64,000 nt of DNA from an uncultured Marinoscillum sp. (GTDB lineage: Bacteria > Bacteroidota > Bacteroidia > Cytophagales > MED-G16), in NCBI GenBank assembly GCA_902633975.1, contig CACPHX010000003.1, positions 15,373 to 79,372 on the forward strand, written 5' to 3'. The position numbers and the translations under genes are program-made. Shown here piece after piece: positions 2,370 through 37,537 of this stretch (position 1 is the first letter of the stretch; every line of letters begins with the position of its first letter). The notes under the pieces were generated by a model. That model had not been told where the DNA came from. It made no database searches and saw only the letters and a list, made by a program, of their open reading frames with translations.

Positions 2370-2378
2370 ATCTTTTAT

Positions 2379-6595: not shown

Positions 6596-7195
6596 CTAAA
6601 AACGATAGAAATATTTTTCCTCTATTGACTTCCATAACAAAAGTGAAGCTATCGTATTGTATGGTTTCCAACTCAATATTAGTTTATCTAGTTTTTTGTT
6701 TGAAAGGTCTTTGATACCATAATTTATTTTAATACTATTAATAAGTGCCAAGTCCTTTTTTGAGAAAATATCTTGTCTAAATAAAATAAATATAAGGAAC
6801 ATCTCTGCTGTCCAGCTACCAATACCTTTAATTTCACATAATATTTTTATTGTTTCTTCGTCAGTCAATTTTTGAAAGTCAAATTCGTTTGATTCAAAAA
6901 ATTTATATACATTTTTTATGTATTCAACCTTTCTTGAAGAAATACCAATTAATCTAATTTTCTCGTCCGGTATATCCAGGAGATTATCACTATTGGTTAG
7001 GAGAACATTAAATTTTTTCTTAATTGTTATAGCAGCCTTGAAACTAATTTGTTGTTCAATTATTAAGTCTGAAATTGCTTTAGCATAATCATTGTTATAT
7101 CTATCTGTGATATCAATTTCGTTTTTAAATCTTTTAATTAAAAAACTCATGACTTGATCATTTTTTAAAACTTTAAATGCATCAGAGTAATCCAT
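6596..7195 (-). CDS. alkA: DNA-3-methyladenine glycosylase II-like HhH-GPD base-excision enzyme
   Basis: HhH-GPD signature IKGIGSWTAEMFLIFILFRQDIF; size about 200 aa. Confidence 0.75.
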   Translation of the reverse strand: MDYSDAFKVLKNDQVMSFLIKRFKNEIDITDRYNNDYAKAISDLIIEQQISFKAAITIKKKFNVLLTNSDNLLDIPDEKIRLIGISSRKVEYIKNVYKFFESNEFDFQKLTDEETIKILCEIKGIGSWTAEMFLIFILFRQDIFSKKDLALINSIKINYGIKDLSNKKLDKLILSWKPYNTIASLLLWKSIEEKYFYRF

Positions 7196-8489: not shown

Positions 8490-8519
8490 AAGGCCAATAA
8501 ATGTTTGGCCTTTTTTTTT
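8490..8519 (+). terminator. Rho-independent terminator hairpin
   Basis: AAGGCCAA (8490-8497), 7-nt loop, TTGGCCTT (8505-8512), and a T-run that continues to 8519. It lies directly after the 8018-8464 gene. Confidence 0.75.
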
Positions 8520-8525
8520 AATATC

Positions 8526-10001
8526 ATGAAAAACTTTTTTTTATTAATCTTAATATTTTTTGTTAGTAACAATATTCTCTCTCAGGTATCTAGAAGTATA
8601 GAAGCTGAAAGCTCAGTCGTTACGAATCATTTTGTAACTGTGAATGGCACAAGAATTCCATATTCAGCAACTGCAGGAACTCTACCGGTCTGGAGTGAAG
8701 ATGACAACGCAGTCGCAACTTTATTTTATACATACTATAAGAGATCCGATGTAAAAGATATCAAAAACAGGCCAATATTCTTTTCCTTCAATGGAGGTCC
8801 AGGCGCTGCATCTATATGGATGCATATGGGATATACAAGTCCGAGAACACTAAACATTGATGATGAAGGCTACCCAGTACAACCTTATGGCATAAAGGAT
8901 AATCCTCACTCAATTATCGATGTAGCTGACATTGTTTATGTAAACCCTGTAAATGTTGGTCTCTCAAGAATACTAGACAAAGATTATGATAGGTCAAAGT
9001 TTTTTGGTGTTAATTCAGATATTGAGTATTTAGCTCAGTGGATTGAAGACTTTATCAATAAATATAATAGGTGGTTATCTCCTAAGTATCTTATTGGAGA
9101 AAGTTATGGAACAACAAGATGCTCAGGGCTAGCTCTTGAGCTTCAAAGTCGATACCACACCACATATCTTAATGGTGTTATCTTGGTTTCACCAACAGGT
9201 TTAGGTATTGACAGAGATGGTCCAGTAGGATCTGCATTAAGATTACCTTATTTTGCAGCAACAGCATGGTACCACGACAAATTAGATGATGATTTACAAA
9301 AGATGGAACTTTTGGATCTCTTAGAAGTTGTTGAAAAATTTACTGTTGAAGAGTTTCTGCCAGCTATTACTCTTGGTAATTCGATAACTGACGATAAAAG
9401 ATCAGAAATTGCAAAAATAGCCTCAAAATATTCTGGTCTTTCAGCTAGAGATTTTATTGACAATAATTTAGATGTAACAGATCAATATTTTTGGAAAAAA
9501 TTATTATATGATGAGGGCTTTATTCTTGGAAGATTGGACTCAAGATATAGAGGTATTGATAAAAAAAATTCAGGTGTTTCTGTGGGTAGTTATCCTGAGC
9601 TAGATGCTTGGGATCACGCATTCACACCAGCTATGCAATATTATCTTAATAACGAATTAAATTATAAGACAAATATGAATTATAATGTTTGGGGTAACGT
9701 GAGACCTTGGAATAGAGATAATGACAGAACTGGAGATAATCTAAGACAGGCTATGGCAAAAAATCCTTTTCTCAATGTTATGATTCAATCCGGTTATTAT
9801 GATGGTGCTACTCAATATTTTGATGCTAAATATACTATGTGGCATATTGATCCTAGTGGTAAGATGAAAGACAGACTATCTTTCAAGGGTTATGAGAGTG
9901 GTCACATGATGTATTTGAGAAGAGAAGATCTAAAAAATTCTAATGATGACATTAGGGAATTTATAAAAAATACTATCCCAACATCACCAGCGAAATATTA
10001 A
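8526..10001 (+). CDS. Exported S10 family serine carboxypeptidase
   Basis: Signal peptide MKNFFLLILIFF. S10 motifs FNGGPGAASIW, catalytic-Ser box IGESYGT and C-terminal ESGHMMY. The start was moved to 8526 because 8505 lies inside the terminator stem. Confidence 0.8.
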   Translation: MKNFFLLILIFFVSNNILSQVSRSIEAESSVVTNHFVTVNGTRIPYSATAGTLPVWSEDDNAVATLFYTYYKRSDVKDIKNRPIFFSFNGGPGAASIWMHMGYTSPRTLNIDDEGYPVQPYGIKDNPHSIIDVADIVYVNPVNVGLSRILDKDYDRSKFFGVNSDIEYLAQWIEDFINKYNRWLSPKYLIGESYGTTRCSGLALELQSRYHTTYLNGVILVSPTGLGIDRDGPVGSALRLPYFAATAWYHDKLDDDLQKMELLDLLEVVEKFTVEEFLPAITLGNSITDDKRSEIAKIASKYSGLSARDFIDNNLDVTDQYFWKKLLYDEGFILGRLDSRYRGIDKKNSGVSVGSYPELDAWDHAFTPAMQYYLNNELNYKTNMNYNVWGNVRPWNRDNDRTGDNLRQAMAKNPFLNVMIQSGYYDGATQYFDAKYTMWHIDPSGKMKDRLSFKGYESGHMMYLRREDLKNSNDDIREFIKNTIPTSPAKY

Positions 10002-10005
10002 TTAG

Positions 10006-12102
10006 ATGAGATACTTTATACTACTTTTATTTATATCAAATCTCTCTTACTCTCAATCAAATTTTACTTTAGATCAGATTAAATCATATCCATTCCCAAA
10101 TGAGTTAACAGGATCTTCAGAAAAATCAAGGATTGCTTGGGCATTTGATGAAGAAGGAAAAAGAAATGTATATGTTGCTGAAGGACCTTCCTTTATTGCT
10201 AGAAGGTTAACCTCTTACATGGATGATACCGGTCAAGAATTATCAAGTGTTTCAATTTCTTCAGATGGTAATTGGATTGTATATATAAGAGGTGGAGATT
10301 TTGGCTCAAATTGGGATGACGAACTTCCAGTTAATCCGACTTTTAATCCTGACCCCCCGAAGGTTCAGATTTGGAGTATCCCCTTTAGTGGTGGTGATCC
10401 AATTATGATTGATGAGGGTATAAATCCAGTTATTTCTCCCCTTAGCGATCAGATTGCATATATAAAGGAAGGGCAGATATGGGTATCTTCTATTGACGGT
10501 GAGGGTGAATCAAAAAAACTCTTTCATTCAAGAGGAAGAAATGGATCTCATTCTTGGTCTCCCGACGGTTCAAAAATAGCATTTGTTTCTTATAGAGGTG
10601 ACAGATCTTTTATTGGAGTTTATAAAGATGAAAAAAATAACATAAAGTGGATTAATCCATCCTTTGATAGAGACACATCTCCTAGGTGGTCTCCTGACGG
10701 AAATCAGATTGTTTACATAAGACAACCAGGAGCTGCTGGAGAACCAGACTCAATACTCGGAGCAAGACATGTACCATGGAAACTTATGAAGTCAGATATA
10801 AATACAATGGTAAGTGAAGAATTGTGGGAAGCTCCCAAAACTATTAGAGGATCATACCCAAGGACTCAGGGTGGAGCTAATCTGCACTGGGCGCACAAAA
10901 GGATAGTCTTTCTTTCATACCACGATGGATGGCAACATTTATATTCCATACCAGAAAGTGGGGGAGAACCAACCCTACTTACCCCAGGTAAGTTTATGTG
11001 TGAGTACATTAAATTATCTCCTGATAAAAAATCACTAGTGTTTACCGCAAATACGGGGAATGATGAGTATGATATAGACAGAAGACATATCGTAAAAGTA
11101 TCAGTAGATAAGTCAGACATGAAAGTTCTTACTAACGGTATTGGACTTGAGTGGACTCCTCTAATTACTGGTGACTTAAACAATGTTGCATTCATAAGTG
11201 CAACATCAACCAGGCCCCCTTTGCCTTCAGTATTAAATCTGAATAATAATAAAATTAAATTGTTATCAGAAGACAGGATACCTAATGATTTTCCTTCTGA
11301 CAAGATGGTAATTCCAACTCAGATAAAATTTAAATCTACGGATGGAATTGAAGTATATGCTACAAAATTTGAGAAAAAGGACAATAAAAAAAATAAGCCT
11401 GCTGTGATTTATATTCACGGAGGCCCACCAAGACAAATGTTATTAGGATGGCACTACTCATCTTATTACTCTAATGCATACGCTTTAAATCAATACCTAG
11501 CTAATAAAGGTTTCGTAGTTATCTCTGTTAATTATAGACTTGGAATTGGTTATGGATTTGAGTTCCATAATCCAGTCGATGGAGGTACCAAGGGTGCGTC
11601 AGAATATAGAGACGTGAAAGCTGCAGGTTTATGGCTCAATCAACAAAATAATATTGATAAAGATAGAATTTATGTTTATGGTGGAAGTTATGGAGGATAT
11701 TTAACAGCTATGGCTCTTGGTAGAGATTCAGATTTATTTTCTGGTGGGGTAGATATACATGGAGTACACGACAGAACTTTATATGGATATTTAAACTCAA
11801 TCAATTATGAGAAAGCCCCCGATTACGATTTAGCAAGAGAGACAGCCTGGAAATCTTCTCCTATCGCAGATATAGATACATGGAAATCTCCAGTATTAAT
11901 CATTCACGCCGATGATGATAGAAATGTATACTTTAAACAGAGTACTGATTTAGTACAAAGATTAAGGAAGAAAAAGGTTTATATGGAGACTATGGTTATA
12001 GTTGATGATACTCATCATTTTATGATGTTTGAAAATCAAATGAAAGTAAATAAAAGTACTGCTGACTTTTTAATCAGATTGGCTGAAGGAAATATTAATT
12101 AG
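10006..12102 (+). CDS. S9 family prolyl-oligopeptidase/dipeptidyl-peptidase with N-terminal TolB-like beta-propeller
   Basis: Signal peptide. Repeated WSPDG propeller motifs. IYIHGGP. Catalytic GGSYGGY. C-terminal HADDDRNV and DDTHHF. Confidence 0.85.
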   Translation: MRYFILLLFISNLSYSQSNFTLDQIKSYPFPNELTGSSEKSRIAWAFDEEGKRNVYVAEGPSFIARRLTSYMDDTGQELSSVSISSDGNWIVYIRGGDFGSNWDDELPVNPTFNPDPPKVQIWSIPFSGGDPIMIDEGINPVISPLSDQIAYIKEGQIWVSSIDGEGESKKLFHSRGRNGSHSWSPDGSKIAFVSYRGDRSFIGVYKDEKNNIKWINPSFDRDTSPRWSPDGNQIVYIRQPGAAGEPDSILGARHVPWKLMKSDINTMVSEELWEAPKTIRGSYPRTQGGANLHWAHKRIVFLSYHDGWQHLYSIPESGGEPTLLTPGKFMCEYIKLSPDKKSLVFTANTGNDEYDIDRRHIVKVSVDKSDMKVLTNGIGLEWTPLITGDLNNVAFISATSTRPPLPSVLNLNNNKIKLLSEDRIPNDFPSDKMVIPTQIKFKSTDGIEVYATKFEKKDNKKNKPAVIYIHGGPPRQMLLGWHYSSYYSNAYALNQYLANKGFVVISVNYRLGIGYGFEFHNPVDGGTKGASEYRDVKAAGLWLNQQNNIDKDRIYVYGGSYGGYLTAMALGRDSDLFSGGVDIHGVHDRTLYGYLNSINYEKAPDYDLARETAWKSSPIADIDTWKSPVLIIHADDDRNVYFKQSTDLVQRLRKKKVYMETMVIVDDTHHFMMFENQMKVNKSTADFLIRLAEGNIN

Positions 12103-15007
12103 ATTTAAGTGGGTCTTCTCTAACAATAATTTTATCTGTAAATTTTTTGCCGTTTTTAAGTCGTATCTCAACATTATAGATACCCTCATCTGCTTCAAAA
12201 TTATCATATAGTTTGTCATCAAAAACTTTTACACCACCGGCATACATTCCGTAATCATCAAGAAAGCTTTTTCTTACTTTGTTTAGATCAGTAAAAGATT
12301 TTTGATCAATAAAATTATATTTGTCAAGTCCTTTCTTATCAATAACAACACTTAAAAATTCTTTTTTTATTTTAATAAGATTATCTCTATACCTGAAAAA
12401 CTCATCTTTTGTTCTCTCTAACTCAAAAGGCCAAACAAATCTGTTAATACCTGCCTTTATATTTAAACTTTTTCTAAAAATTGGTTCTTTAGAATTATCA
12501 TCTACATTATTTTTTGAGATTATTAATTCACCTTCTGTATTACTAGTACTGAAATAATTAATTAAAGTCCCGTATGGAGGATTTTCACCTCTAAACTCGA
12601 AAAAAGGTTGTTTTCTTCCTGTATTAATTTTTACCCATTTGGTAGAAATTCTTGTTGCTAGTAGGTTATCTTCTTTTTCATTTAAAAATCGCAAGGGTGA
12701 AATATCATCAAGAATCCAGATACTTCTTCCATGAGTACCAGCAACTAGATCTCCATCTCTTGGATGAATAACCAAGTCATGTATTGCAACAGTTGGAAGA
12801 TTGCTACCAAGTTTTTCCCAGGAAGTTCCTCTATCATTACTGAAATAGACAGATTTTTCAGTACCAACAAAAAGTAAATTTTCATCTACATAATCTTCTT
12901 TTATGACATAAACTGAATAATCCTGGGGTAGATTGGATGATATATTACTCCATGTTTTTCCATAATCTTCTGTAATAAAAACATAAGGTTTATTATCATC
13001 AAATCTATGATTATCAAATGATACATATGCTCTTCCTTTTGAATGTTTAGACGCTTCAACCCTACTAACCCATATCTTCTCAGGAACACCATCAATATTA
13101 TTTTTTACATTTTCCCATGAATCGCCATTGTTTCTTGTTACCTGAACATTTCCGTCATCTGTTCCAACCCATATTAATGTTGTATCTATAGGAGTATCAC
13201 TAATTGTAATAATTGTAAAGTGATTTTCACCTCCAGTGTTACTATTAGTCAGGCCACCTCCATTCGAAGTATTTCTAAGTTTTTTATCATTTGTTGTCAG
13301 GTCTGGACTTATTATTTTCCAGTTGTCTCCTCTGTCAAAAGACTGGAATAGATGATTTGATCCAAATAAGACTTTTTTTGAGTTATGGGATGAAATTATA
13401 AATGGACTACTCCAATTAAACCTAAACTGAGGAGGTAAAAGAGGTCTGTCAGGTCTCTCTCTAAAAAACCAGTGTTCACCAGGGTCAATTGTATATCTAT
13501 TTCTTGACTCATCATAATTATAATCAACAAAATTTTTAAAATTTGAAATAGTTTCAGGAGTAGGTGTAATAAATGAATATTCTCTTGTCTCAATATTTTG
13601 CCTTGCAACAAATCCAACGTGGTTAACTGTGTATACAGTTTTCCAATCCTCAGGATCTATTTGGGTATGAAAACCATCTCCCTCTGCAATCCACGTACTA
13701 TGCATATTTAAAATTCCTCTATACTCTCTGCTGTTACTTGGCGTTACCCAAAGACCATTATCTTGCAATCCTCCACCAACATAATATGGATCTCGCATAT
13801 CAACACCAATTGCATAGTACTGACCAATAGCCATATTGTTGTGTGATAACCAACTTTGACCACCATCAATAGATAGTCTAGAACCCTGATCAGTTGCTAA
13901 ATACATAATTTTATTATCATAAGGTGCAATCCACATGTCGTGGTCATCACCTCCATCTGTTCTCCATCTTCTCGGATAAAAACTTTTACCTCCATCATTA
14001 GATATCATAAACCCTCTAGAAACAACGTAAATATTATCTGGATCTATTGGATCAATCTCTATCTGTCCATGATAGAAAGGTCTTACTGCATGTTTTAATA
14101 AAAAACTCCAAGATTCACCTTCATCATATGAAATATAAACTCCTGTTCCTGGTTCATTTTCAGGAATATTTTCATCTGCTTCATATGCCATTACCATTAT
14201 TTTAGGATTATTTAGATGGATTGAGATATCTATCATCCCGCTTTTCCCTCTGGCAAGACCGGTAGTAATTTTCTTCCAGTTTTTTCCCCCGTCTGTACTT
14301 TTGAATAGTCCACCTTGTTCTCCACCACTCACAAAACTAGCAGGTTGTCTCAATCTGTGGTAAAATCCAGCAAACATAATATCTGGATTTTCTGGATGAA
14401 ATATTATCTCTGTGCAACCTGTTTTCCCATCATTAGGCAGCCCACCCTCAACACGATTCCATGATGAACCTCCATCTTTAGTCATAAAAAGTCCTCTATC
14501 ACCAGAATATCCCCACAAATGTCCTACTGCAGCAGCGTAAACAATATCTGGATTTTTAGGATGTATTTCAATTTCAGCAATTTGATGAGTGGATTCTAAG
14601 CCCATATTTTTAAAAGTCTTGCCACCGTCTACAGATTTGTAGATTCCATCACCCCACGCACTTGAGTTACGGTTTGCTGACTCACCTGTTCCTACCCATA
14701 TAGTATTTAAATTATTTTGATCAAATTTTACAGAACCTATTGATCCAGCACCATAATTATCAAAAATACTCTCCCATGTTATACCTCCATTGTCAGATTT
14801 AAATACTCCTCCTGATGCTGAGGCAATCAAAACTTTTCTGTAATCTTTATTGCTAGCATCAATTGCAGCAATTCTTCCCATCATATTGGCTGGTCCAATA
14901 TTTCTCCATTTTAGGTCGTGTGTAGAAGATTTTTTCTGAGCATTTAAACTTATATTAAATGATATAATAAAGAAAAAAAATAAAATTTTTAATTTTTTAA
15001 GATTCAT
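12095..15007 (-). CDS. Exported sortilin/VPS10-like BNR (Asp-box) repeat beta-propeller protein
   Basis: At least 10 Asp-box repeats of the S-x-D-x-G-x-(T/S)-W type (SDNGGITW, TKDGGSSW, STDGGKNW, SIDGGQSW, TEDYGKTW and others). Start set at MNLKKLKILFFFF (15007). Confidence 0.75.
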   Translation of the reverse strand: MNLKKLKILFFFFIISFNISLNAQKKSSTHDLKWRNIGPANMMGRIAAIDASNKDYRKVLIASASGGVFKSDNGGITWESIFDNYGAGSIGSVKFDQNNLNTIWVGTGESANRNSSAWGDGIYKSVDGGKTFKNMGLESTHQIAEIEIHPKNPDIVYAAAVGHLWGYSGDRGLFMTKDGGSSWNRVEGGLPNDGKTGCTEIIFHPENPDIMFAGFYHRLRQPASFVSGGEQGGLFKSTDGGKNWKKITTGLARGKSGMIDISIHLNNPKIMVMAYEADENIPENEPGTGVYISYDEGESWSFLLKHAVRPFYHGQIEIDPIDPDNIYVVSRGFMISNDGGKSFYPRRWRTDGGDDHDMWIAPYDNKIMYLATDQGSRLSIDGGQSWLSHNNMAIGQYYAIGVDMRDPYYVGGGLQDNGLWVTPSNSREYRGILNMHSTWIAEGDGFHTQIDPEDWKTVYTVNHVGFVARQNIETREYSFITPTPETISNFKNFVDYNYDESRNRYTIDPGEHWFFRERPDRPLLPPQFRFNWSSPFIISSHNSKKVLFGSNHLFQSFDRGDNWKIISPDLTTNDKKLRNTSNGGGLTNSNTGGENHFTIITISDTPIDTTLIWVGTDDGNVQVTRNNGDSWENVKNNIDGVPEKIWVSRVEASKHSKGRAYVSFDNHRFDDNKPYVFITEDYGKTWSNISSNLPQDYSVYVIKEDYVDENLLFVGTEKSVYFSNDRGTSWEKLGSNLPTVAIHDLVIHPRDGDLVAGTHGRSIWILDDISPLRFLNEKEDNLLATRISTKWVKINTGRKQPFFEFRGENPPYGTLINYFSTSNTEGELIISKNNVDDNSKEPIFRKSLNIKAGINRFVWPFELERTKDEFFRYRDNLIKIKKEFLSVVIDKKGLDKYNFIDQKSFTDLNKVRKSFLDDYGMYAGGVKVFDDKLYDNFEADEGIYNVEIRLKNGKKFTDKIIVREDPLKSN

Positions 15008-16652
15008 ATACCCATTTTCCTCCAACCATAGTTCTTTCTACTGGAATATCAATAATTCTCATAGGATCAGTTTCTCTAGGATCTTGACCTAAAATGGTCA
15101 AATCAGCCAATTTACCTATCTCAATAGAACCTTTAATATTTTCTTCATATGAGGCATATGCTCCATTGATTGTTGCAACTTTAATGGCTTCCTCGACACT
15201 TATTTTTTGGCTTGGTCCCCAGACTTCACCTGTGTAATCAGTTCTTGTTACACTTGATTGTATTGCCATCATAGGTTCGAATGGTCCTGGAGGATAATCT
15301 GAGGTTTGAGTTACAGGTATCCCAGCATCAAGAAAACTTCTAACAGCAAACATATTTTCTAGTCTTTCTTTACCATATTCTTTCATTTTTTCTCCATGAA
15401 AATAAACATATGTAGAAAAAGGATTAGGTATTACTCCAAGAGTTTTTATTCTTTGGACCAAAGACTCATTTATTATTGTGCAATGTTCAATTCTAAATCT
15501 AGGGTCTTTTCTATATTTTTCTTTTTGGAGTCTTTCAAAAACTCTTAGGGTTATATCAATACCCACATCTCCGTTTGCATGAACTCCGATTTGCCAGTCA
15601 TTTAAATGCGCTTTGATAGCTTCCTCGTAAATTTCATCTTCATTATTAATAATAATTCCATAATAATCCGGTCTACCAATATATGGTTTTGATAATCTTG
15701 CAGTTCTTTCAGATATTGATCCATCACATACTAACTTGACTGCGCCAACACGAACCCACTCGTCACCATAACCTGTTTTCTTACCAGATCCATTTACTTC
15801 ATCAAAAGCATAACCCCGAATCATACAATAAACTCTTGTCTTGAGTTCTCCACTTTCATAGGCATCCTCAAATGCTTGAAGGGATTTTACACCAGTTCCT
15901 GCGTCAGTCACAGAGGTAATTCCGGATTTTGATAACATTTCTGATATTAATTTGACTCCTGCCTGGTAATCTGATCTAGTAAATTGATTTGGAATAAATT
16001 TTTCTACAAGATAAGTAGCTGTTTCAAGAAGTCTCCCATTTAAATTTCCTGTCTCAAGATCCCTTTCAATATTACCTCCTTTTGGGTCAGGTGTTTTTTC
16101 ATCTATTCCTGCTATTTTAAGAGCTAATGAATTTACATATGCAGTATGACCTCCTCTATGAGTTATCATCACTGGGTGATCTGGAGATACTTCGTCAAGG
16201 TCGATATTATTTATATATCTTTTCTCTTTTGTCTTAGTATCATCGTATTTAAACCCACTAATCCATTCCCCTTTAGGTGTCTTCTTAGATCTCTCAAAGA
16301 TTGCATTTTTAATTTCTTCTATTGACCTCAGATCACAATCAACATTTCTAAGGTGTGATCTTCCCGCACCAGCAGGGTGAGAGTGAGCGTCAATAAATCC
16401 TGGTGTTATAATTTTTCCACCAACATTAATTTTTTTAGTGTATGCTGAACTTAGATTCATTATGTCTTCGTTACTTCCGACACCAATAATTTTATCACCA
16501 CTAATTGCTATAGCTTCAGCTGATGGTTGATTAGGGTTTACGGTTATAATATCTGCATTATATAATATTAAATCTGCTTTTTCTAAATAACATGACATTA
16601 ATGCTAATGGAGGCAATGATGCTACAAAATCTCTTCTACTAATATTTTTCAT
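14997..16652 (-). CDS. Tat/Sec-exported amidohydrolase family protein (YtcJ-like metal-dependent hydrolase)
   Basis: N-terminal SRRDFVASLPPLALMS. Metal-binding GFIDAHSHP. Length ~550 aa, typical of the Amidohydro_3 family. Confidence 0.75.
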   Translation of the reverse strand: MKNISRRDFVASLPPLALMSCYLEKADLILYNADIITVNPNQPSAEAIAISGDKIIGVGSNEDIMNLSSAYTKKINVGGKIITPGFIDAHSHPAGAGRSHLRNVDCDLRSIEEIKNAIFERSKKTPKGEWISGFKYDDTKTKEKRYINNIDLDEVSPDHPVMITHRGGHTAYVNSLALKIAGIDEKTPDPKGGNIERDLETGNLNGRLLETATYLVEKFIPNQFTRSDYQAGVKLISEMLSKSGITSVTDAGTGVKSLQAFEDAYESGELKTRVYCMIRGYAFDEVNGSGKKTGYGDEWVRVGAVKLVCDGSISERTARLSKPYIGRPDYYGIIINNEDEIYEEAIKAHLNDWQIGVHANGDVGIDITLRVFERLQKEKYRKDPRFRIEHCTIINESLVQRIKTLGVIPNPFSTYVYFHGEKMKEYGKERLENMFAVRSFLDAGIPVTQTSDYPPGPFEPMMAIQSSVTRTDYTGEVWGPSQKISVEEAIKVATINGAYASYEENIKGSIEIGKLADLTILGQDPRETDPMRIIDIPVERTMVGGKWVYES

Positions 16653-16669
16653 TTCTTTAAATATAATAT

Positions 16670-18181
16670 TTATTTAGAGATTAAATCAAGTTCCTTTTTT
16701 AAATCAGTATTTGGATAAAGTATGGAAAATATATAGCCTGTAAATAACCCCAATAATAGAGCAGGAGCTAACTCAGCAATATTATTAAAATATATACCAT
16801 AAGGCTCGATATTTGGTATTATGAATTTAAAAATAAGTACTCCAAGAAATCCTACTATCATTGAAGCAATTGCACCTGTTTCGGAAAGACCTTTCCAAAA
16901 CAGAGAAAGTATTATAGTAGGACAAAAACTTGCCGCAATTCCATGAAAACCTACTAAAACAAACCAAAATATAGTCCTTTCAGGTGTTAAATTAGCAACT
17001 GTAATAGCAACAACGAATGCCAACGAAGCCATAATAAACGTCGTGATTTTAGAAATAAATGTTAATTTATTTATCTCCACTTTTGGATTATAAATATTTT
17101 GATAAATATCTCTTGCAAATGCACTTGATGCAAGAACAAGAAGTGAGTCTACTGTTGACATTATAGCTGCAAGAACAACTGCCATATAAAAGCCTATAAA
17201 TAGTAATGGTAATAAATTTTCAACCATCATTATTAATGAATTTTGACCATTATTACCAAGTATACTTTCAACTTCAACGCCATTTTCTGTAAAAAAATAT
17301 CTTGCCATCATACCAATTAAAACGGCACATGAGTCAGTAATGAATGTGAATAAAACTGCAACCCATCTTCCTTTATTTATTTCTTGCTCATTTTTTATTG
17401 ACATAAACCTTACAAAAATTTGGGGAGAACCTAGAAAGGCTAATCCAATACATAAGTAGCCAACAATTGTAGATAGATTTATTAGATTGAATCCACCTGA
17501 TCCCCACGGTGAAATTAATCCTCTATCTATTTTATTTAGACCTTCTAATATTTGAAATTCACCATTAAAAGAGTAGTAGCCAATTACTGGTAATATAACT
17601 AGAGCTAAAAACATTAGACTTCCTTGAATTAAATCAGACCAAGCGACAGCTATGAACCCACCAAATACCACATAGGCTAAAACTATAAAGTAACCCAATA
17701 CAGCACCTGTGAAGTAATTCCAATCCATAAAGGCTTCAAATGCAGAGCCAGTAGCATCAATTTGTGCACTCACATATATTATAATGAAGAAAGTAAGGAA
17801 AAGAGACGATAAGTATCTTAAATGATTAGTCTTAGGTTTTAGTTTAGAAACTAGGTAATCAGTTATTGTAATGGATTTATATCTATCAGTAAGTTTTTTA
17901 AATTTTTTTGCCATAAAAAACCAAGCCCCTAAAACCCCTAAAACCTCTCCAATAACAACCCAAAAAGCACTAACCCCAACAACAGCACCTAGTCCAGTGA
18001 GACCTAGTAATAGCCATGCTGATTCACCGGTTGCTCTCGTTGAAAAAGCTACAACCCAAAACCCTAGTTTCTTTCCTCCAACATAATAATCCTTTATGTT
18101 TTTAATCTTTTTAGATGAGTACCAACCAATAAAAAAAAGAATAAGAAAATATAGAAATAAAATAATTAGTTTAACCTCCAT
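16670..18181 (-). CDS. Sodium:solute symporter (PutP/PanF-like SSS family)
   Basis: 503 aa with ~13 TM segments. N-terminal YYVGGKKLG and STRATGESAWLLLGLTG are typical of the SSS family. Confidence 0.8.
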   Translation of the reverse strand: MEVKLIILFLYFLILFFIGWYSSKKIKNIKDYYVGGKKLGFWVVAFSTRATGESAWLLLGLTGLGAVVGVSAFWVVIGEVLGVLGAWFFMAKKFKKLTDRYKSITITDYLVSKLKPKTNHLRYLSSLFLTFFIIIYVSAQIDATGSAFEAFMDWNYFTGAVLGYFIVLAYVVFGGFIAVAWSDLIQGSLMFLALVILPVIGYYSFNGEFQILEGLNKIDRGLISPWGSGGFNLINLSTIVGYLCIGLAFLGSPQIFVRFMSIKNEQEINKGRWVAVLFTFITDSCAVLIGMMARYFFTENGVEVESILGNNGQNSLIMMVENLLPLLFIGFYMAVVLAAIMSTVDSLLVLASSAFARDIYQNIYNPKVEINKLTFISKITTFIMASLAFVVAITVANLTPERTIFWFVLVGFHGIAASFCPTIILSLFWKGLSETGAIASMIVGFLGVLIFKFIIPNIEPYGIYFNNIAELAPALLLGLFTGYIFSILYPNTDLKKELDLISK

Positions 18182-18184
18182 CTG

Positions 18185-19510
18185 TCAATAACAAAATTCA
18201 TCTGCTACCTTCAGTGCCTTCGAAATTATATCTATACCTTCGTCAATATCCTCCTCAGATGATGTAAGTGGTGGTGCTATGAAAATATAATTCCATTTAG
18301 TATAAGTGAACATACCTTCATCTCTTAATTTTCTAATTACTTTATTCATGTCTTCCATCTCTTTAGAATTTGCATTAAAAGGAGCTAAAGGGTCTTTATT
18401 TTTTCTATTTTTTACAAGTTCAATACATCCTAACATACCAGTATTTCTCCAGTCTCCAATTGATGGATGTTTATTTATTAACTCTTCAACTTTCCTATCA
18501 GTATATGATCCAATTTTATTGACATTTTCAATTATTTTTTCATTTTCATATATGTCAAGAACAGAAACAGCAGCAGCACATGCAACAGAATGAGCAGAAT
18601 AAGTCAGACCAAGAGGTAAAAATTTATCATTAAATGAATTTATAATTTTATCTGATATCATTACACCACCTAATGGTATGTAACCAGATGTAACTCCTTT
18701 AGCTATTGTTATAATATCAGGTTTGATTCCATGATTTTGAAAACCAAACCACTTACCAGTCCTACAGAAGCCACTCATTACTTCATCAATTATCAGTAAT
18801 AAGTCATATTTTTTACATAACTCTTCAACTTTTTTTAAATAAAAAGGAGGATATTTTATACATCCAGATGTTCCTGACTCACCCTCCATCATTATTGCAG
18901 CTATATTATTTGCTCCTTCATAATTAATTGTCTTCTCTAAATTTTTTATTGCTCTATCACCACATTCCTCAAAACTATTTGAGTACCAAGGACACCTGTA
19001 ATAGTATGGATTTTCAACATGTATGAAGTTAGGGACTTGTTGACTATCGATCTCATTTTTTCTAGGATCACCACCAGCAGAGACAGATCCGATTGTTGCT
19101 CCATGGTAGGATCTATAATGAGTTATTATTTTATGTCTTTGTGTAAATAATCTAGCTAAAATAATAGCATTTTCATTTGATTCTGCTCCTCCAAGTGTAA
19201 AAAATGTTTTATTGATATTATTTGGTGTAATGTCAGCAAGTTTTTTCCCAAGTATACCTCTTGAATCAGTAGTAAATGGAGGACTAACATAACTTAGTTT
19301 TTCCATCTGTTCCTTTACAGCTTCAGTTACTTCCTGTCTTCCGTGTCCAATATTTACATTCATTAATTGTGAGGAAAAATCAATATATTTTTTGTTTTTT
19401 TCATCAAAGAGATGAACACCTTCTGCTTTTTTAACATGAATAGGATCTAGCCCTTTTTGATTTGACCATGCAAAAATCGTATTTTCAAGATTGTATTTTT
19501 TTGTATTCAT
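18185..19510 (-). CDS. Class III (omega) aminotransferase, beta-alanine/taurine:pyruvate type
   Basis: TLGGAESNENA and IIDEVMSGFCRTGKWF. A PLP-lysine region in ITIAKGVTSGYIPLG. The YYYRCPW motif is common in omega-amino acid:pyruvate transaminases. Confidence 0.8.
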   Translation of the reverse strand: MNTKKYNLENTIFAWSNQKGLDPIHVKKAEGVHLFDEKNKKYIDFSSQLMNVNIGHGRQEVTEAVKEQMEKLSYVSPPFTTDSRGILGKKLADITPNNINKTFFTLGGAESNENAIILARLFTQRHKIITHYRSYHGATIGSVSAGGDPRKNEIDSQQVPNFIHVENPYYYRCPWYSNSFEECGDRAIKNLEKTINYEGANNIAAIMMEGESGTSGCIKYPPFYLKKVEELCKKYDLLLIIDEVMSGFCRTGKWFGFQNHGIKPDIITIAKGVTSGYIPLGGVMISDKIINSFNDKFLPLGLTYSAHSVACAAAVSVLDIYENEKIIENVNKIGSYTDRKVEELINKHPSIGDWRNTGMLGCIELVKNRKNKDPLAPFNANSKEMEDMNKVIRKLRDEGMFTYTKWNYIFIAPPLTSSEEDIDEGIDIISKALKVADEFCY

Positions 19511-19511
19511 T

Positions 19512-20963
19512 TTAACTCATCCAATTTTTTTTTGCTCCTTTATTCCATTTGGTAGTTCTCTTTTTCAGTTGGGTCCAAAAGTTTATAGAACTTTTACCTG
19601 TTATATCTCCAACTCCAAACCTTGAATCATTCCATCCACCAAATGAGAATGGTTCTCTTGGTACTGGAACTCCAATATTAACCCCAATCATTCCTGCACA
19701 AACTTTTTCAGAAACATAGTCTGCCAGTTTTCCATCTTGTGTATAAACTGATGATGCATTTCCGAAGTTTGATCTGTTTTCTATTTTGATGGCTTCGTCA
19801 ATGTCATTAGTTCTCATTATTGCTAAAACAGGACCAAAAACTTCTTCTTTAGCAATTTTCATATCTGGAGTTACATTATCAATTATAGTTGGACCAATAA
19901 AATAACCTTTCTCTTTCCCTTTAACTTTAACGTTTCTTCCATCTAAAAGTATTTTTGCCCCATTTTTCTCAGCTTCGTCAATATACTTTTTTATTCTTAG
20001 TTGAGCATTTTTTGATATCACTGATCCTAAATTTTTACCAGGTATCATCTTTTTTGCTTTCATAACTAGTTTATCAATAACCTCTTGAATTTCACCAACT
20101 CCAACCATTGCTGATGCTGCCATACACCTCTGTCCAGAACATCCTGACATAGAGGCAAGAATATCATCAGATGCCATTTCTTTGTCTGCATCCTGTAAGA
20201 CAATTAAATGATTTTTAGCTCCACCTAATGCAATACACCTTTTTAAATTTTGAGTTGACATCTGATAAACAATTTTTGCAATTTTAGTTGAACCAACAAA
20301 TGAAACTGCTGATATGTCATCATTCTCACATATCGCTTTAACAATTTTTTTGTCTCCGTTTATTACATTAAAAACACCATCAGGTAAACCAGATAATTTT
20401 AATAACTCTGCAATTTTAGATACCCCAATAGGTGTTTGTTCAGAGGGTTTAAATACCATACAATTTCCTAAAATTAAAGCATTTGGTATTGTCCACATTG
20501 GCACCATAATAGGGAAATTAAATGGAGCTATCGATGCTACTATTCCAATTGATTCATGAGATGATCTGCATTCGACACCTTTACTGACTTCTTGTATTTC
20601 ATCACTTATTATTTGGGGCATAGAACAAGCAAATTCTGTAAGTTCAATTCCTTTTAATACCTCAGCTCTAGCTTCATTCAATATTTTTCCATTTTCTTCA
20701 ACAATTAATTCTGAGAGAGAATCTAAGTTTTTAATTAGTTGATTTCTGAACTCATAAAAAATTTCAGCCCTTTGTTTTAGTGTAAAATTAGACCAGGTTT
20801 TGTATGATGAGAGAGCACATTTAATAGCTAATTTTAAATCATTATTTGTTGAGTTAACGACATCACCTATTATGTTTCCTTTTTGAGGATTATATATAGG
20901 AATAGTATCATTTTCTGAATTTTGAAATTTTCCTCCAATAAAATTTTCTATTTTTTTATTCAT
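19512..20963 (-). CDS. mmsA: CoA-acylating methylmalonate/malonate-semialdehyde dehydrogenase
   Basis: ALDH fold with the MMSDH hallmarks LGGAKNH, catalytic-Cys box GQRCMA and C-terminal GVNIGVPVPREPFSFGGW. Confidence 0.85.
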   Translation of the reverse strand: MNKKIENFIGGKFQNSENDTIPIYNPQKGNIIGDVVNSTNNDLKLAIKCALSSYKTWSNFTLKQRAEIFYEFRNQLIKNLDSLSELIVEENGKILNEARAEVLKGIELTEFACSMPQIISDEIQEVSKGVECRSSHESIGIVASIAPFNFPIMVPMWTIPNALILGNCMVFKPSEQTPIGVSKIAELLKLSGLPDGVFNVINGDKKIVKAICENDDISAVSFVGSTKIAKIVYQMSTQNLKRCIALGGAKNHLIVLQDADKEMASDDILASMSGCSGQRCMAASAMVGVGEIQEVIDKLVMKAKKMIPGKNLGSVISKNAQLRIKKYIDEAEKNGAKILLDGRNVKVKGKEKGYFIGPTIIDNVTPDMKIAKEEVFGPVLAIMRTNDIDEAIKIENRSNFGNASSVYTQDGKLADYVSEKVCAGMIGVNIGVPVPREPFSFGGWNDSRFGVGDITGKSSINFWTQLKKRTTKWNKGAKKNWMS

Positions 20964-22128
20964 TTAACCTATTGTATTTTTTTAAGATATCTTTTAATCT
21001 ATCATGAGGCAACTTATAAACTGTATTATTATTTATGCCTGTCATTGTCTCAGCTGATATTAATGCATTGATTATAGCTTCTTCTGTTGCCTGACCAGTT
21101 GCATTTAAAAATGGATTCATAAGATCATTTGGTAAAAAATTAATATTTCCTATTTCTTCTCTATTAAATGCCCCTGGATTTGCTGTAGAGAAAGTGATAA
21201 AAATATCTCCCGAACCGTTTGAGCCAAAACCCCCAACTCGTGAAATACCAACTGGAACTCTTCTTGCCAATCTTTTCAATTGGTTAGGAAGAAAAGGTGC
21301 ATCTGTTGCCACTATAACTATGATTGATCCTAGACCTTCTTGTTTCTCACCAAAAGTAATTTTTGGTAGTAAATTTTTAATTTCTTTACCTATAGGTACT
21401 CCTGCAATAGTTAATTGATTTCTATTTCCATAGTTTGCTTGAACTAATACTCCTAGTGTATACTCTTTTTCCTTTAATACTATTTTTCTTGATGATGTAC
21501 CAATACCTCCTTTAAATCCATGACAAGTCATACCTGTTCCACCTCCGACATTTCCCTCACTTACAATTCCACCTTTTGCATTATTAAGTGCATTAAAAGC
21601 ATGTTCTTTTTTAACATGAAAACCATTGATATCATTTAGTGATCCATCATACGTCTCAGCTACTACAGGTAGTGTCCAGAACAGATCCTTAATATTATAA
21701 AGTGTTTTAAAAAATTTGTTTTTATAACTCCATTCTATAACTGCATCCCTAACTACACCTACACTATGAGTATTTGTTATCATTATTGGACCTTCTAGGA
21801 ATCCAGATTCTTCTACCCAAGTGGTACCAGTCATTTCACCGTTTCCATTTAAAGAGTACCATCCAGCAAATACTGGATCATAATTCATTCCTCTTGGTAA
21901 TATTGATGTCACACCAGTCCTAACTGGACCTTTACCTACAATCAAATTTCCGTCTCCTTCTATTATAGTCTCATGTCCTACAAGAATTCCTTTAACATCA
22001 GTAATAGAGTTATATTTTCCTGGATTTCCATCAAATGGTATCCCTAAATCTCTAGCTCTAATTTTATCTTGGGAATAAGTTTCGATACTAAATATTGATA
22101 GAATTAAGATTGTTGTATAAATTCTCAT
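20956..22128 (-). CDS. Exported S58 (DmpA/BapA, P1 family) aminopeptidase
   Basis: Signal peptide. GGGTGMTCHGFKGGIGTSS. A putative self-processing site and nucleophile in GLGS-IIVIVATDAPF. Confidence 0.8.
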   Translation of the reverse strand: MRIYTTILILSIFSIETYSQDKIRARDLGIPFDGNPGKYNSITDVKGILVGHETIIEGDGNLIVGKGPVRTGVTSILPRGMNYDPVFAGWYSLNGNGEMTGTTWVEESGFLEGPIMITNTHSVGVVRDAVIEWSYKNKFFKTLYNIKDLFWTLPVVAETYDGSLNDINGFHVKKEHAFNALNNAKGGIVSEGNVGGGTGMTCHGFKGGIGTSSRKIVLKEKEYTLGVLVQANYGNRNQLTIAGVPIGKEIKNLLPKITFGEKQEGLGSIIVIVATDAPFLPNQLKRLARRVPVGISRVGGFGSNGSGDIFITFSTANPGAFNREEIGNINFLPNDLMNPFLNATGQATEEAIINALISAETMTGINNNTVYKLPHDRLKDILKKYNRLNE

Positions 22129-22192
22129 TTTATTGATAACTTAAATATATATAAATCAATAAATAATATTTTATCAAATTATATATTAAATT

Positions 22193-24661: not shown

Positions 24662-24827
24662 AGATAGTTTTAATGGAATTTTAGGAGGAGTGTGTTCAGG
24701 TTTTGGTGAATATTTTGAAATTGATCCTGTAATTTTTAGACTATTATTTATTGCCTTTTTCTTTGTGTTTGGCGGGGGAATATTTATTTATCTAATTGCA
24801 TGGTTGATTATACCTGATAGATATTAA
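24645..24827 (+). CDS. PspC domain membrane protein
   Basis: LGGVCSGFGEYFEIDPVIFRLLFI followed by one TM segment. Confidence 0.75.
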   Translation: MKRVFRDSFNGILGGVCSGFGEYFEIDPVIFRLLFIAFFFVFGGGIFIYLIAWLIIPDRY

Positions 24828-26359
24828 TCAATTTTTTCTAGAAGAAGGTAAACCATGCCTAATGTTCCATCAATAAAATTACCTACTCTGATATTTTCAT
24901 TAGGGCTGTGCTGATTATTATCTTTATTTACTGAGGGATATGTTAAGGCTGGAACATTTAATGTTGTCACAAATGGAGAAATAGGTATTGAACCACCTGA
25001 TGTTCTTTTCTTTATAGGATCTTCATTAAATGCTTTTTTCAACGCTTTGGATGCCCAATTTCCAATAGGTGAATTAATCTCAGTCCTGTACGCTAGGTAA
25101 CTTACTTTTGAGTCAAACCTAATTATATTTTTTTTGGTTAGCCTTTCTACATCTGATGGATCTCTATTTTCAATAACATATGCACCTTCTTTGATTATAT
25201 GATTCTTTATTAAGTTTAATAGCCTCTCTGGGTTACTTTCTTTTACAAGCCTTACATCAATTTCAGCAATTGCCATGTCTGGAACTATTGTTCTAACCTC
25301 TTTTCTGACCCATCCTGATTGTAAGCCCCTAACATTTAAAGACGGATATTGTATTGCTTCTTGATAATTTTCTCCGACTTTATCAGCTGATGCTACCATA
25401 AGTTCTTTTTTTATTTGATCCTCATCGTCTGGAACTGCATCCATTATTAATTTAATTTCATCGCTGAAGGTGACTCCATCATAGAATCCAGGAATTACAA
25501 CTCTACCTTCATAATCCTTCATAGACGAAAGAATTTTTGATAAGTTCATTGCTGGATTTGGTGCATAATTACCAAAGTGTCCACTATGTTGTGGTTTAAT
25601 TGGTCCATATGATGTTAATGTGATTCTACTAATACCTCTTGCTCCAAATGTTAAAGTTGGTTTATTTGAAGGGTGTCTTGGTCCGTCAATTATCAAAAGA
25701 AAATCAGACTTAAGTTTTTCTTTATGTAAAGATACCGCACTAACAACTGTTGGTGAACCCATTTCCTCCTGAAAATCAATGATCAATTTTATATTGAATT
25801 TAGGTTCCTTATTTAGCTTTTCAAGAACCTCTAATGCATTAACCAACATCATAGGAGGTCCTTTATCATCACTAGTTGATCTACCAAAAATTCTCCAATT
25901 TGGATTTGGATTGTTTTTGATTTTATCTCTTTCTATTTCTACCCATTTACCATCAATGTTCTCTGAAAGTATCGGAATAAATGGGTTCTCTTGGTTCCAC
26001 TTACTTGGATCAACGGGTTGACCATCCATATGAAAGTAAATCAAAACAGTTTTGTAGTTTTTCGAGATAAACCTATTTGCAATTAATAGCGGATGATTTG
26101 GCATCATAGGGCTAGTACTTTTGGCCATTACCCTTTCAACATCAAAACCAAGTTCTGTGAATGTTTCCTCACACCATATTATATTTTTTTCAATATTTGG
26201 AGTGTCATACCCATCATTAGGTATTGATAGCATTTCAAAAAACCTATCCCAATTATTCTGAATGGTAGAATAAGTTATTTTTTTAATCTTTTCATCACTT
26301 TGTGATAAAAGTAAATTTGGTATTAGAAGGCATCCAATTAAAAATAATTTATTCATCAT
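24824..26359 (-). CDS. Exported M20 family dipeptidase
   Basis: Signal peptide. HMDGQP, RSTSDDKGP and FQEEMGSP metal/catalytic motifs. C-terminal HSPNENI. Confidence 0.8.
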   Translation of the reverse strand: MMNKLFLIGCLLIPNLLLSQSDEKIKKITYSTIQNNWDRFFEMLSIPNDGYDTPNIEKNIIWCEETFTELGFDVERVMAKSTSPMMPNHPLLIANRFISKNYKTVLIYFHMDGQPVDPSKWNQENPFIPILSENIDGKWVEIERDKIKNNPNPNWRIFGRSTSDDKGPPMMLVNALEVLEKLNKEPKFNIKLIIDFQEEMGSPTVVSAVSLHKEKLKSDFLLIIDGPRHPSNKPTLTFGARGISRITLTSYGPIKPQHSGHFGNYAPNPAMNLSKILSSMKDYEGRVVIPGFYDGVTFSDEIKLIMDAVPDDEDQIKKELMVASADKVGENYQEAIQYPSLNVRGLQSGWVRKEVRTIVPDMAIAEIDVRLVKESNPERLLNLIKNHIIKEGAYVIENRDPSDVERLTKKNIIRFDSKVSYLAYRTEINSPIGNWASKALKKAFNEDPIKKRTSGGSIPISPFVTTLNVPALTYPSVNKDNNQHSPNENIRVGNFIDGTLGMVYLLLEKID

Positions 26360-37463: not shown

Positions 37464-37465
37464 AG

Positions 37466-37537
37466 TAGCCCTGACAAGAATCGAACTTGTATCTAAAGTT
37501 TAGGAAACTTCTATTCTATCCATTGAACTACAGGGCC
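37466..37537 (-). tRNA. tRNA-Arg (anticodon CCT)
   Basis: Hand-folded 72-nt cloverleaf: acceptor GGCCCTG/CAGGGCT, anticodon stem GAAGT/ACTTT, loop TTCCTAA, T-arm ACAAG-TTCGATT-CTTGT, discriminator A. No CCA is encoded. Confidence 0.85.

Follow-up and report, generated by a model that had tools for sequence, protein, structure and literature searches.

Why should a marine bacterium keep the gene for an exported aminopeptidase of the DmpA/BapA type (peptidase family S58) so close to one for malonate/methylmalonate-semialdehyde dehydrogenase (MMSDH) that the dehydrogenase start overlaps the aminopeptidase stop by 8 nt? The pair opens a run of six minus-strand genes in the 64,000-nt stretch of DNA shown above (hereafter the window; all gene coordinates are window positions), in which genes for a class-III (omega) aminotransferase, a sodium:solute symporter, an amidohydrolase, and a BNR/Asp-box propeller protein follow. 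With confidence only a little above even, we read the six as an operon for the release, uptake, and catabolism of beta-alanine-type (beta- or omega-amino) compounds in a marine member of the Bacteroidota. Six co-oriented and tightly packed genes are ordinary for bacteria; it is the recurrence of the partnership elsewhere that exceeds chance.

What are the six genes?

The first is the S58 aminopeptidase gene (20956-22128, minus strand, as are all six), whose 390-amino acid product has an N-terminal signal peptide of about 20 residues and is predicted to be of the self-processing type. It is followed by the gene for the MMSDH, of the IolA/MmsA type (19512-20963; 483 amino acids, predicted to be CoA-acylating and cytoplasmic), and by that for the class-III (omega) aminotransferase of the PRK06062 subfamily (18185-19510; 441 amino acids, also predicted to be cytoplasmic). 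Next come the sodium:solute symporter of the SSS family (16670-18181; 503 amino acids), a YtcJ-like Amidohydro_3 metallohydrolase with a twin-arginine signal that is probably a lipoprotein (14997-16652; 551 amino acids), and a BNR/Asp-box, Sortilin-Vps10-like propeller protein that is predicted to be exported (12095-15007; 970 amino acids).

The gaps between the genes, when recomputed, are -8, +1, +3, +17, and -11 nt. A first-pass annotation of this DNA had described six packed minus-strand genes, and both its coordinates and its five spacings are reproduced from the list of open reading frames (ORFs). Its family calls for all six agree with hidden Markov model (HMM) searches of Pfam and NCBIfam/TIGRFAM, and the export that it claimed for the aminopeptidase, the amidohydrolase, and the BNR protein is readable as N-terminal signals in all three sequences. 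The dehydrogenase and the transaminase have no comparable signal, which brings the tally to three products with export signals, one transporter, and two cytoplasmic enzymes. For the BNR gene the mechanical ORF opens at TTG 15025, with ATG 15007 as an alternative start; the latter is likelier, because it reproduces the 11-nt overlap seen in gene calls from relatives.

Does the partnership recur in other phyla?

We surveyed the neighbours of S58 genes in one genome per species, which gave 80 loci whose S58 proteins share 58-93% identity with the query. We clustered every ORF lying within 8 kb of S58, in ~1.1 Mb of flanking sequence. Class-III aminotransferases are found near this S58 clade more often than any other family, at 20 of the 80 loci, and a cluster of MMSDH-like aldehyde dehydrogenases (ALDHs) lies near S58 at 12. 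The aminotransferases crowd toward S58: by distance to the nearest one, 12 loci fall below 2 kb, five at 2-4 kb, two at 4-6 kb, and one at 6-8 kb, although nearly equal amounts of sequence were sampled in each bin. At eight loci the aminotransferase gene is co-directional and less than 250 bp upstream. Altogether the flanks hold 33 class-III aminotransferases, against only a few expected by chance, since bacterial genomes usually carry only a handful of them.

The partnership of S58, transaminase, and MMSDH does recur elsewhere, in three phyla and in differing gene orders. Among the Bacteroidota, a PRK06062 transaminase and a TIGR01722 MMSDH stand beside an exported S58 protein, in the order MMSDH-aminotransferase-S58, in Christiangramia (locus L006; 497 and 532 bits for the pair) and Mucilaginibacter (L058). 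The same pair lies near S58 in seven loci from Acidobacteriota (e.g., L027, with 529 and 576 bits) and, 13 bp away, in Ca. Aquilonibacter of the Vulcanimicrobiota (L072). Because gene order and strand differ between these groups, we take the trio to reflect repeated selection for proximity and not one inherited arrangement.

The Christiangramia locus (L006, 254-16551) deserves a closer look. SusC/SusD-like genes and an IS1595-type transposase are followed by the MMSDH, PRK06062 aminotransferase, and exported S58 genes, and after S58 come genes for an exported hydrolase of family S12 (beta-lactamase fold) and for a Na+ symporter of the SNF family; a LacI-type regulator is encoded nearby. Judged by its predicted products, this is an analogous module, in which the same logic is assembled from a non-orthologous hydrolase and transporter.

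A different aminotransferase accompanies S58 at some other loci. In six of them (L016, L034, L043, L051, L063, and L073; for example, L043 8403-17357), a PRK07483-type enzyme (515 bits) is encoded less than 250 bp upstream of S58. A GcvT-like (demethylase-like) protein is encoded downstream in L016, L043, L063, and L073, and the first three of these additionally have two CrtI-like FAD oxidoreductases. Such loci may represent a route for N-methylated amines or betaines.

Is the aminopeptidase a genuine DmpA/BapA relative?

The S58 protein matches Peptidase_S58 (PF03576) with 382.2 bits (cut-off 23.9) over profile positions 1-306 of 307. Its homology to DmpA (PDB 1b65) is full length, at 49% identity and an E value of 8e-104, and BapA (PDB 3n2w) is almost as close (5e-98). 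The Gly/Ser self-cleavage site of DmpA, G249/S250, aligns with G267/S268, which in BapA corresponds to N/S. Likewise, Y160, N232, and S306-G307-D308 align with Y146, N218, and S288-G289-D290 of DmpA, the other residues of its active site (Tyr146, Asn218, and Ser288-Gly289-Asp290). All of the aligned catalytic residues are invariant across 14 relatives (alignment A1). The signal peptide, MRIYTTILILSIFSIETYSQ, places about 20 hydrophobic residues before RARDLG, the sequence that opens mature DmpA and BapA.

Absence of a self-processing serine nucleophile would, in the first-pass annotation, have refuted its reading of the operon; the serine is present, as S268 in the alignment to DmpA and BapA. 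The protein is thus closely related to DmpA and BapA and retains all of the catalytic residues that align, and both self-cleavage and beta-alanyl release are predicted for it. DmpA, BapA, and BapF act on beta-alanyl compounds, carnosine among them, in hydrolysis or in synthesis (PMC9235088), and in Pseudomonas aeruginosa beta-alanine aminopeptidase activity requires bapF, a gene that adjoins a permease gene (PMC13344977).

How is the locus arranged in close relatives?

Close relatives of the locus come from marine metagenomes and from metagenome-assembled genomes (MAGs) labelled Marinoscillum, Flammeovirgaceae, Cytophagales, or Cytophagia; a single one bears the name Marinimicrobia. On these labels the host probably belongs to the Cytophagales, among the marine Bacteroidota, and not to the Flavobacteriia; the G+C content of the window is 26-36%. 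Three alleles can be told apart, and all share the same flanks: a divergent HlyIII gene on one side, and convergent S9 and S10-like peptidase genes on the other.

The six-gene form recurs with proteins 86-88% identical to those of the window (L094-96) and again at 74-82% identity (L083/84 and L088-90). The arrangement, whose absence from related genomes would have told against the first-pass annotation, is therefore kept in related lineages, with six-gene order and flanks intact at 74-88% amino acid identity.

In the two-gene form, BNR comes straight after S58 and overlaps it at ATGA; this form belongs to the lineage closest to the window (93% identity for S58 and 92% for BNR). It was found in five places from independent samples (JGI, Tara, and ENA; L097-L101, 8001-12079) and on a MAG contig (L003, 10001-14076). 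We considered whether it might be an assembly artefact and rejected this, as the five independent-sample places and L003 always have the same ATGA junction. Since the closest relative has only S58 and BNR, the four middle genes are dispensable, and the outer two can be kept without catabolic genes at the locus.

The 13-gene form (76-81% identity; L085-L087 and L091-L093, e.g., L092 151-17430) runs S58-MMSDH, iolB-C-D-E-G, a symporter, an opposite-strand iolG-like gene, and then aminotransferase-SSS-amidohydrolase-BNR. Its insert is thus an iol cassette of seven genes, of which one lies on the opposite strand and the remaining six are co-directional. The 8-nt overlap of S58 and MMSDH is preserved in every six- and 13-gene allele. 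Cassettes are thus swapped in and out between S58 and BNR, and the six genes do not form an indivisible unit.

Please note that in two long-read "pilon" contigs (L091 and L093), the amidohydrolase, iolC, iolD, iolE, and symporter genes are each fragmented. Indel errors are likelier than pseudogenes here, because the short-read L092, of the same lineage, is intact.

Which semialdehyde does the dehydrogenase handle?

The dehydrogenase scores 486.2 bits against the TIGR01722 MMSDH model (cut-off 448.5). Its ten best matches in the PDB are all MMSDHs, at 368-400 bits, and the next family follows at 230 bits. The motifs GAKNH (residue 248) and GQRCMA (277), claimed for it in the first-pass annotation, were found, and VPVPREPFSFGGW is visible in the translation. 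In context, ALGGAKNH (in place of ELGGK) and GQR279C280MA form a pattern identical to that of the MMSDHs 4zz7 and 4e4g; the GxRC motif holds the catalytic cysteine with an arginine before it (Arg301-Cys302 in ALDH2 numbering). Against the model for the sulfoacetaldehyde dehydrogenase SafD the protein reaches only 200.7 bits, with a cut-off of 700.

The 13-gene allele is informative about substrate. There, an orthologue 76% identical to the dehydrogenase leads the iolB-C-D-E-G genes (L085-87 and L091-93), whose products exceed the cut-offs of the NCBIfam equivalog models for iolB (317 bits, cut-off 205), iolC (370, cut-off 300), iolD (874, cut-off 715), and iolG (418, cut-off 355); the iolE model is the only match for its gene, yet falls below cut-off. 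The order is the canonical iolA-B-C-D-E, and there is no other iolA within the locus. With the canonical iolBCDEG cassette directly behind it and no other candidate in the locus, the orthologue would act as IolA; as the inositol route ends in malonate semialdehyde, that is then the compound it would handle. This supports malonate semialdehyde as the probable intermediate common to both routes and hence a beta-alanine-type route in the window.

Where does the transaminase belong?

The transaminase matches Aminotran_3 with 295 bits and the PRK06062 model NF004718 with 486.1 bits (cut-off 472). Its pyridoxal phosphate lysine, K271 in the sequence AKG, aligns with FAKGVT of the taurine:2-oxoglutarate aminotransferase Toa (PDB 6jix). 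Toa is also the top PDB match, at 325 bits over the full length and 38% identity, with the runner-up at 267 bits; this placement is a ranking of bit scores against the PDB, used as a proxy for phylogeny. The first-pass annotation would have been refuted by a firm place in an unrelated substrate clade, such as that of the ornithine or acetylornithine enzymes. Neither the HMM results nor the PDB ranking puts the enzyme there, and the nearest solved structure is Toa. On these comparisons it is an omega-transaminase of a little-studied subfamily, belonging to neither the ornithine/acetylornithine enzymes nor the BauA type; it may work like a beta-alanine:pyruvate enzyme, yet would do so from outside that subfamily. 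Our literature search found no publications on PRK06062.

What might the other three products contribute?

The symporter is a clear member of its family, with 239 bits for Pfam SSF (cut-off 22.8) and 213.5 bits for TIGR00813 (cut-off 184).

The amidohydrolase scores 321 bits against Amidohydro_3 (PF07969; cut-off 29.7). At its N-terminus it has a twin-arginine motif, SRRDFV, at residue 5 and LMSC at residue 18. Candidate metal ligands, assigned by eye, lie in DAHSHP (88), KLVCDG (306), VHANGD (357), IEHCT (388), and TSDYP (450). A search of the PDB returned only the uncharacterised hydrolases 3icj and 3igh. An exported amidohydrolase of ~490 amino acids, from another subfamily than that of the window, is encoded within 8 kb of S58 at five of the surveyed loci (in L016, directly after S58 at 5141-6613), and the pairing of S58 with an exported amidohydrolase may thus be a recurrent one.

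The BNR protein matches Sortilin-Vps10 (124 bits, cut-off 33) and BNR (46 bits, cut-off 27) and has a classical signal peptide, MNLKKLKILFFFFIISFNISLNAQ. It is the constant partner of S58 in this lineage, standing directly after it in the two-gene allele. BNR/Sortilin-like proteins with 29-36% identity are also encoded a few kb from S58 in distant phyla (L049, L050, L051, and L071), a co-location that may point to a functional link between the two proteins. Searched by sequence and by profile, the PDB gave weak partial matches only, and we draw no functional claim from them: a BNR "glycosyl hydrolase" (3b7f, 37-41 bits), dispase autolysis-inducing protein (22-27 bits), and Ycf48. An AlphaFold2 model was unusable (mean pLDDT 53.6, pTM 0.40), because the 14-sequence alignment behind it is too shallow, with listed homologues that are all at least 78% identical.

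Which pathway do the genes encode?

The release-uptake-catabolism reading can be set out as a series of steps. The exported DmpA-type N-terminal nucleophile (Ntn) aminopeptidase would mature by self-cleavage at Gly267/Ser268 and then strip a beta-alanyl residue, or one that is similarly small and non-alpha, from the N-terminus of extracytoplasmic peptides or amides, possibly assisted by the exported amidohydrolase and the BNR propeller. The freed amino acid would enter together with Na+ through the SSS symporter. Inside the cell, the PRK06062-type omega-transaminase would make malonate semialdehyde from it, and the CoA-acylating dehydrogenase would convert this by oxidative decarboxylation to acetyl-CoA. 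We infer that the amine is beta-alanine rather than 3-aminoisobutyrate or another amine, and the same standing applies to the cargo of the symporter, to what the aminopeptidase cleaves in nature outside the cell, to transcription of the six genes as one unit, and to any part played by the amidohydrolase or BNR protein. For the last two steps there is biochemical precedent, as a bicistronic operon of an omega-transaminase and an MMSDH-type enzyme has been shown to take beta-alanine to acetyl-CoA in vitro (PMC4907197).

Several findings weigh against this reading. In 60 of the 80 surveyed loci, no aminotransferase lies within 8 kb of S58. The two-gene locus is without dehydrogenase, transaminase, symporter, and amidohydrolase genes; in the 13-gene allele, the opposite-strand gene parts S58-MMSDH-iol from aminotransferase-SSS-amidohydrolase-BNR, and the six-gene set is not always one transcription unit. 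The margin of the dehydrogenase over its TIGR01722 cut-off is narrow. It also has Lys104 (LKGIEL) where 4zz7 and 4e4g align the arginine of RG(I/L)E, a candidate for the second carboxylate-binding arginine (Arg124 in ALDH2 numbering); every marine orthologue, iol-linked or not, has the lysine, and Acidobacteriota homologues have arginine. The nearest solved homologue of the transaminase is Toa and not a beta-alanine:pyruvate enzyme, two of which score 180.5 (4b98) and 192 bits (3a8u) against 325 for Toa. The symporter stays below the substrate-specific models for PutP (311.7, cut-off 515.5) and PanF (195.4, cut-off 328), and the PDB searches pointed to no function for either the amidohydrolase or the BNR protein. 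Finally, the Flavobacteriia setting of the first-pass annotation is probably wrong, as the relatives carry Cytophagales-type labels instead.

Two of the earlier claims come out of this divided. That of a self-contained module is upheld by the recurrence of the six-gene order and undercut by the two- and 13-gene alleles, which split the set. That of beta-alanine-type catabolism draws strength from the cross-phylum trio and the iolA position of the orthologue, and loses some from a transaminase nearest to Toa and four dispensable middle genes.

The most serious rival, which we nevertheless think rather doubtful, treats the locus as a mosaic. S58, BNR, and the flanking S9, S10-like, and M20 peptidases would form a general exported peptide-scavenging set, and MMSDH-aminotransferase-SSS-amidohydrolase would be an exchangeable cassette of its own that serves for free beta-alanine, 3-aminoisobutyrate, or some other amine and happens to lie in a recombination-prone slot. 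Three alleles of one slot, with two, six, and 13 genes, are what such a history would leave; the two-gene allele is common and is that of the closest relative, the neighbourhood is rich in peptidases (M24, S10-like, S9, and M20), and most S58 loci elsewhere are without a transaminase nearby. A mosaic sits badly, however, with the 8-nt overlap that joins S58 to MMSDH in every six- and 13-gene allele, and with an S58-transaminase(-MMSDH) neighbourhood that is independent in three phyla, with differing orders and strands and a steep decay with distance. The Christiangramia analogue, too, again unites exported hydrolases, a Na+ symporter, a transaminase, and an MMSDH. A second and improbable account keeps the pathway and changes the amine to 3-aminoisobutyrate, in which case methylmalonate semialdehyde would yield propionyl-CoA, or to another beta-amino acid, such as beta-homo-amino acids from natural beta-peptides. 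TIGR01722 enzymes commonly accept both malonate and methylmalonate semialdehyde, to go by the names of PDB entries 9izv and 8xxq, and BapA-type enzymes cleave N-terminal beta-homo-amino acids according to work cited in PMC9235088. Even so, the iolA position of the orthologue indicates malonate semialdehyde, and for ketone-forming beta-amino acids the dehydrogenase would be needless. Nor is 3-aminoisobutyrate known as the N-terminal residue of natural peptides, which counts against that amine.

A taurine or hypotaurine route, with a Toa-type taurine:2-oxoglutarate aminotransferase and an ALDH acting on sulfoacetaldehyde, seems very unlikely to us. It would account for Toa being the best solved homologue and for the JGI auto-annotation of relatives as "taurine--2-oxoglutarate transaminase"; yet identity to Toa is only 38%, none of the six operon products is of the Xsc type, and the aminopeptidase has no obvious taurine-releasing role. 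The ALDH, moreover, is an MMSDH, far below the SafD cut-off and in the iolA position in a sister lineage. Least credible of all is biosynthesis or salvage, in which S58 and a transaminase running in reverse would supply beta-alanine for pantothenate and CoA, although scavenging for CoA synthesis has been suggested for the P. aeruginosa bapF operon (PMC13344977). An MMSDH-type enzyme showed no detectable reverse reaction, that is, no NADH-dependent reduction of acetyl-CoA (PMC4907197). The dehydrogenase consumes malonate semialdehyde and is tightly coupled to S58 and the transaminase, so degradation is favoured over salvage.

Beyond the window, the release-uptake-catabolism reading can be widened. 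This exported S58 clade might be the dedicated front end of a pathway, widespread in Bacteroidota, Acidobacteriota, and Vulcanimicrobiota, that mineralises peptides or amides with a terminal beta-alanyl residue from dissolved organic matter; in marine Cytophagales one MMSDH would be shared with an inositol cassette placed in the same operon, and the Sortilin-like BNR protein would be an obligatory extracellular partner of the peptidase. We offer this tentatively, as a possibility well short of even.

What surrounds the operon?

A 64-bp intergenic region (22129-22192, unstranded), defined by its coordinates and sequence, separates S58 from the divergent HlyIII/TrhA gene and is presumably the only non-coding space open to an operon promoter. 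A by-eye check of this region for Bacteroidota-type promoter motifs found no exact TAnnTTTG. A sigma-70 promoter scan gave 53 promoter-like sites against 57.5 expected from shuffles, with a model that does not cover Bacteroidota promoters. In a scan of the operon, no terminator-like site fell in any of the five gaps, and the two terminator-like hits both lie inside ORFs. Rfam and tRNA scans turned up neither a riboswitch nor any further RNA element close to the operon.

At the other end, a gene for an S9 (prolyl-oligopeptidase-type) peptidase (10006-12102, plus strand; Peptidase_S9, 134 bits) is convergent with the operon and lies outside it, its 3' end overlapping that of the BNR gene by 8 nt (12095-12102). 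This S9 flank is retained in all three alleles. Further peptidase genes stand around the operon, namely M24 (3287-4618, minus strand), S10-like (8505-10001, plus), and M20 (24824-26359, minus); the M20 family includes carnosinases. Upstream of the peptidase genes, at 1059-3284 and 4925-6595, are genes for a GFO_IDH_MocA oxidoreductase, an AP_endonuc_2 (xylose-isomerase-like TIM barrel) protein, and a second SSF symporter, which may be a sugar or inositol-type utilisation set. The window also holds a further aldehyde dehydrogenase gene (34224-35849, minus strand; 541 amino acids) and a tRNA-Arg(CCT) gene (37465-37537, minus strand), besides which an Rfam scan of the whole window found no RNA family.

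How does the locus compare with known systems?

Every component is of a known family, and there are precedents both for pairing a transaminase with an MMSDH and for pairing S58 with a permease. DmpA, the L-aminopeptidase D-Ala-esterase/amidase of Ochrobactrum anthropi, and BapA of Sphingosinicella (MEROPS S58/P1) share full-length homology and the same aligned catalytic residues with the window protein. BapA is also made with a signal peptide, and the deposited BapA chain begins at the RARDLG that follows the signal peptide of the window S58. Unlike the DmpA and BapA genes, that of the window is translationally coupled to a malonate-semialdehyde dehydrogenase gene. DmpA and BapA have been characterised in vitro on synthetic substrates and are not known from a catabolic operon.

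The bapF (PA1486), permease (PA1485), and regulator (PA1484) genes of P. aeruginosa offer a likeness in having an S58 gene beside a transporter gene, with the same logic of release and then uptake; the transporter there is described as an amino-acid permease and not as a symporter of the SSS family, neither a transaminase nor an MMSDH is reported, and there is a regulator, which the window operon does not have (PMC13344977). In the iolABCDEFGHIJ operon of the Bacillus subtilis type, iolA (mmsA) shares its family HMM and motifs with the window dehydrogenase, which differs in being without trailing iol genes, in being paired with a transaminase, and in its lysine for the arginine of RG(I/L)E. 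The bauA and bauC genes of P. aeruginosa encode a similar pair of omega-transaminase and malonate-semialdehyde dehydrogenase. In Pseudomonas sp. AAC, as in the window, a class-III transaminase gene adjoins one for a TIGR01722-type dehydrogenase (KES23458/KES23460), and the pair takes beta-alanine through malonate semialdehyde to acetyl-CoA (PMC4907197). Compared with the AAC pair, the window has a transaminase of another subfamily (PRK06062), and its operon also encodes a transporter and exported hydrolases.

Taurine is the sulfonate analogue of beta-alanine, and Toa of Bifidobacterium kashiwanohense (6jix) is the nearest solved homologue of the transaminase, distant as it is. Toa is reported to work with a sulfoacetaldehyde reductase, whereas the partner of the window transaminase is an MMSDH, and not a sulfoacetaldehyde reductase or Xsc. 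In the literature that we searched, we found no description of an operon uniting an exported S58 protein, a transporter, a transaminase, and an MMSDH, which is not proof of novelty. Nor did we find there a description of the cross-phylum recurrence or of an inositol cassette that shares the dehydrogenase.

What does the finding mean for this enzyme family?

DmpA/BapA beta-aminopeptidases serve as biocatalysts, for work with beta-peptides and for carnosine synthesis, and their natural substrates and role are unsettled. Even for P. aeruginosa bapF, beta-alanine scavenging has only been suggested, in a 2026 preprint (PMC13344977). A neighbourhood that recurs across phyla makes the natural role of these enzymes assayable, and the trio has cultured carriers for genetics in Christiangramia and Mucilaginibacter. 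The three alleles of the marine locus, with two, six, and 13 genes in one slot, are in addition a natural example of cassette exchange around a shared intermediate.

Tara Oceans and other marine metagenomes contain carriers in abundance, each variant being represented by dozens of contigs. Among non-protein amino acids, beta-alanine is a classic constituent of degraded marine organic matter, and the operon may therefore be the marker of one particular path by which dissolved organic nitrogen is turned over. If this S58 clade is indeed the front end of such a pathway, that would be the first physiological role for the DmpA/BapA family.

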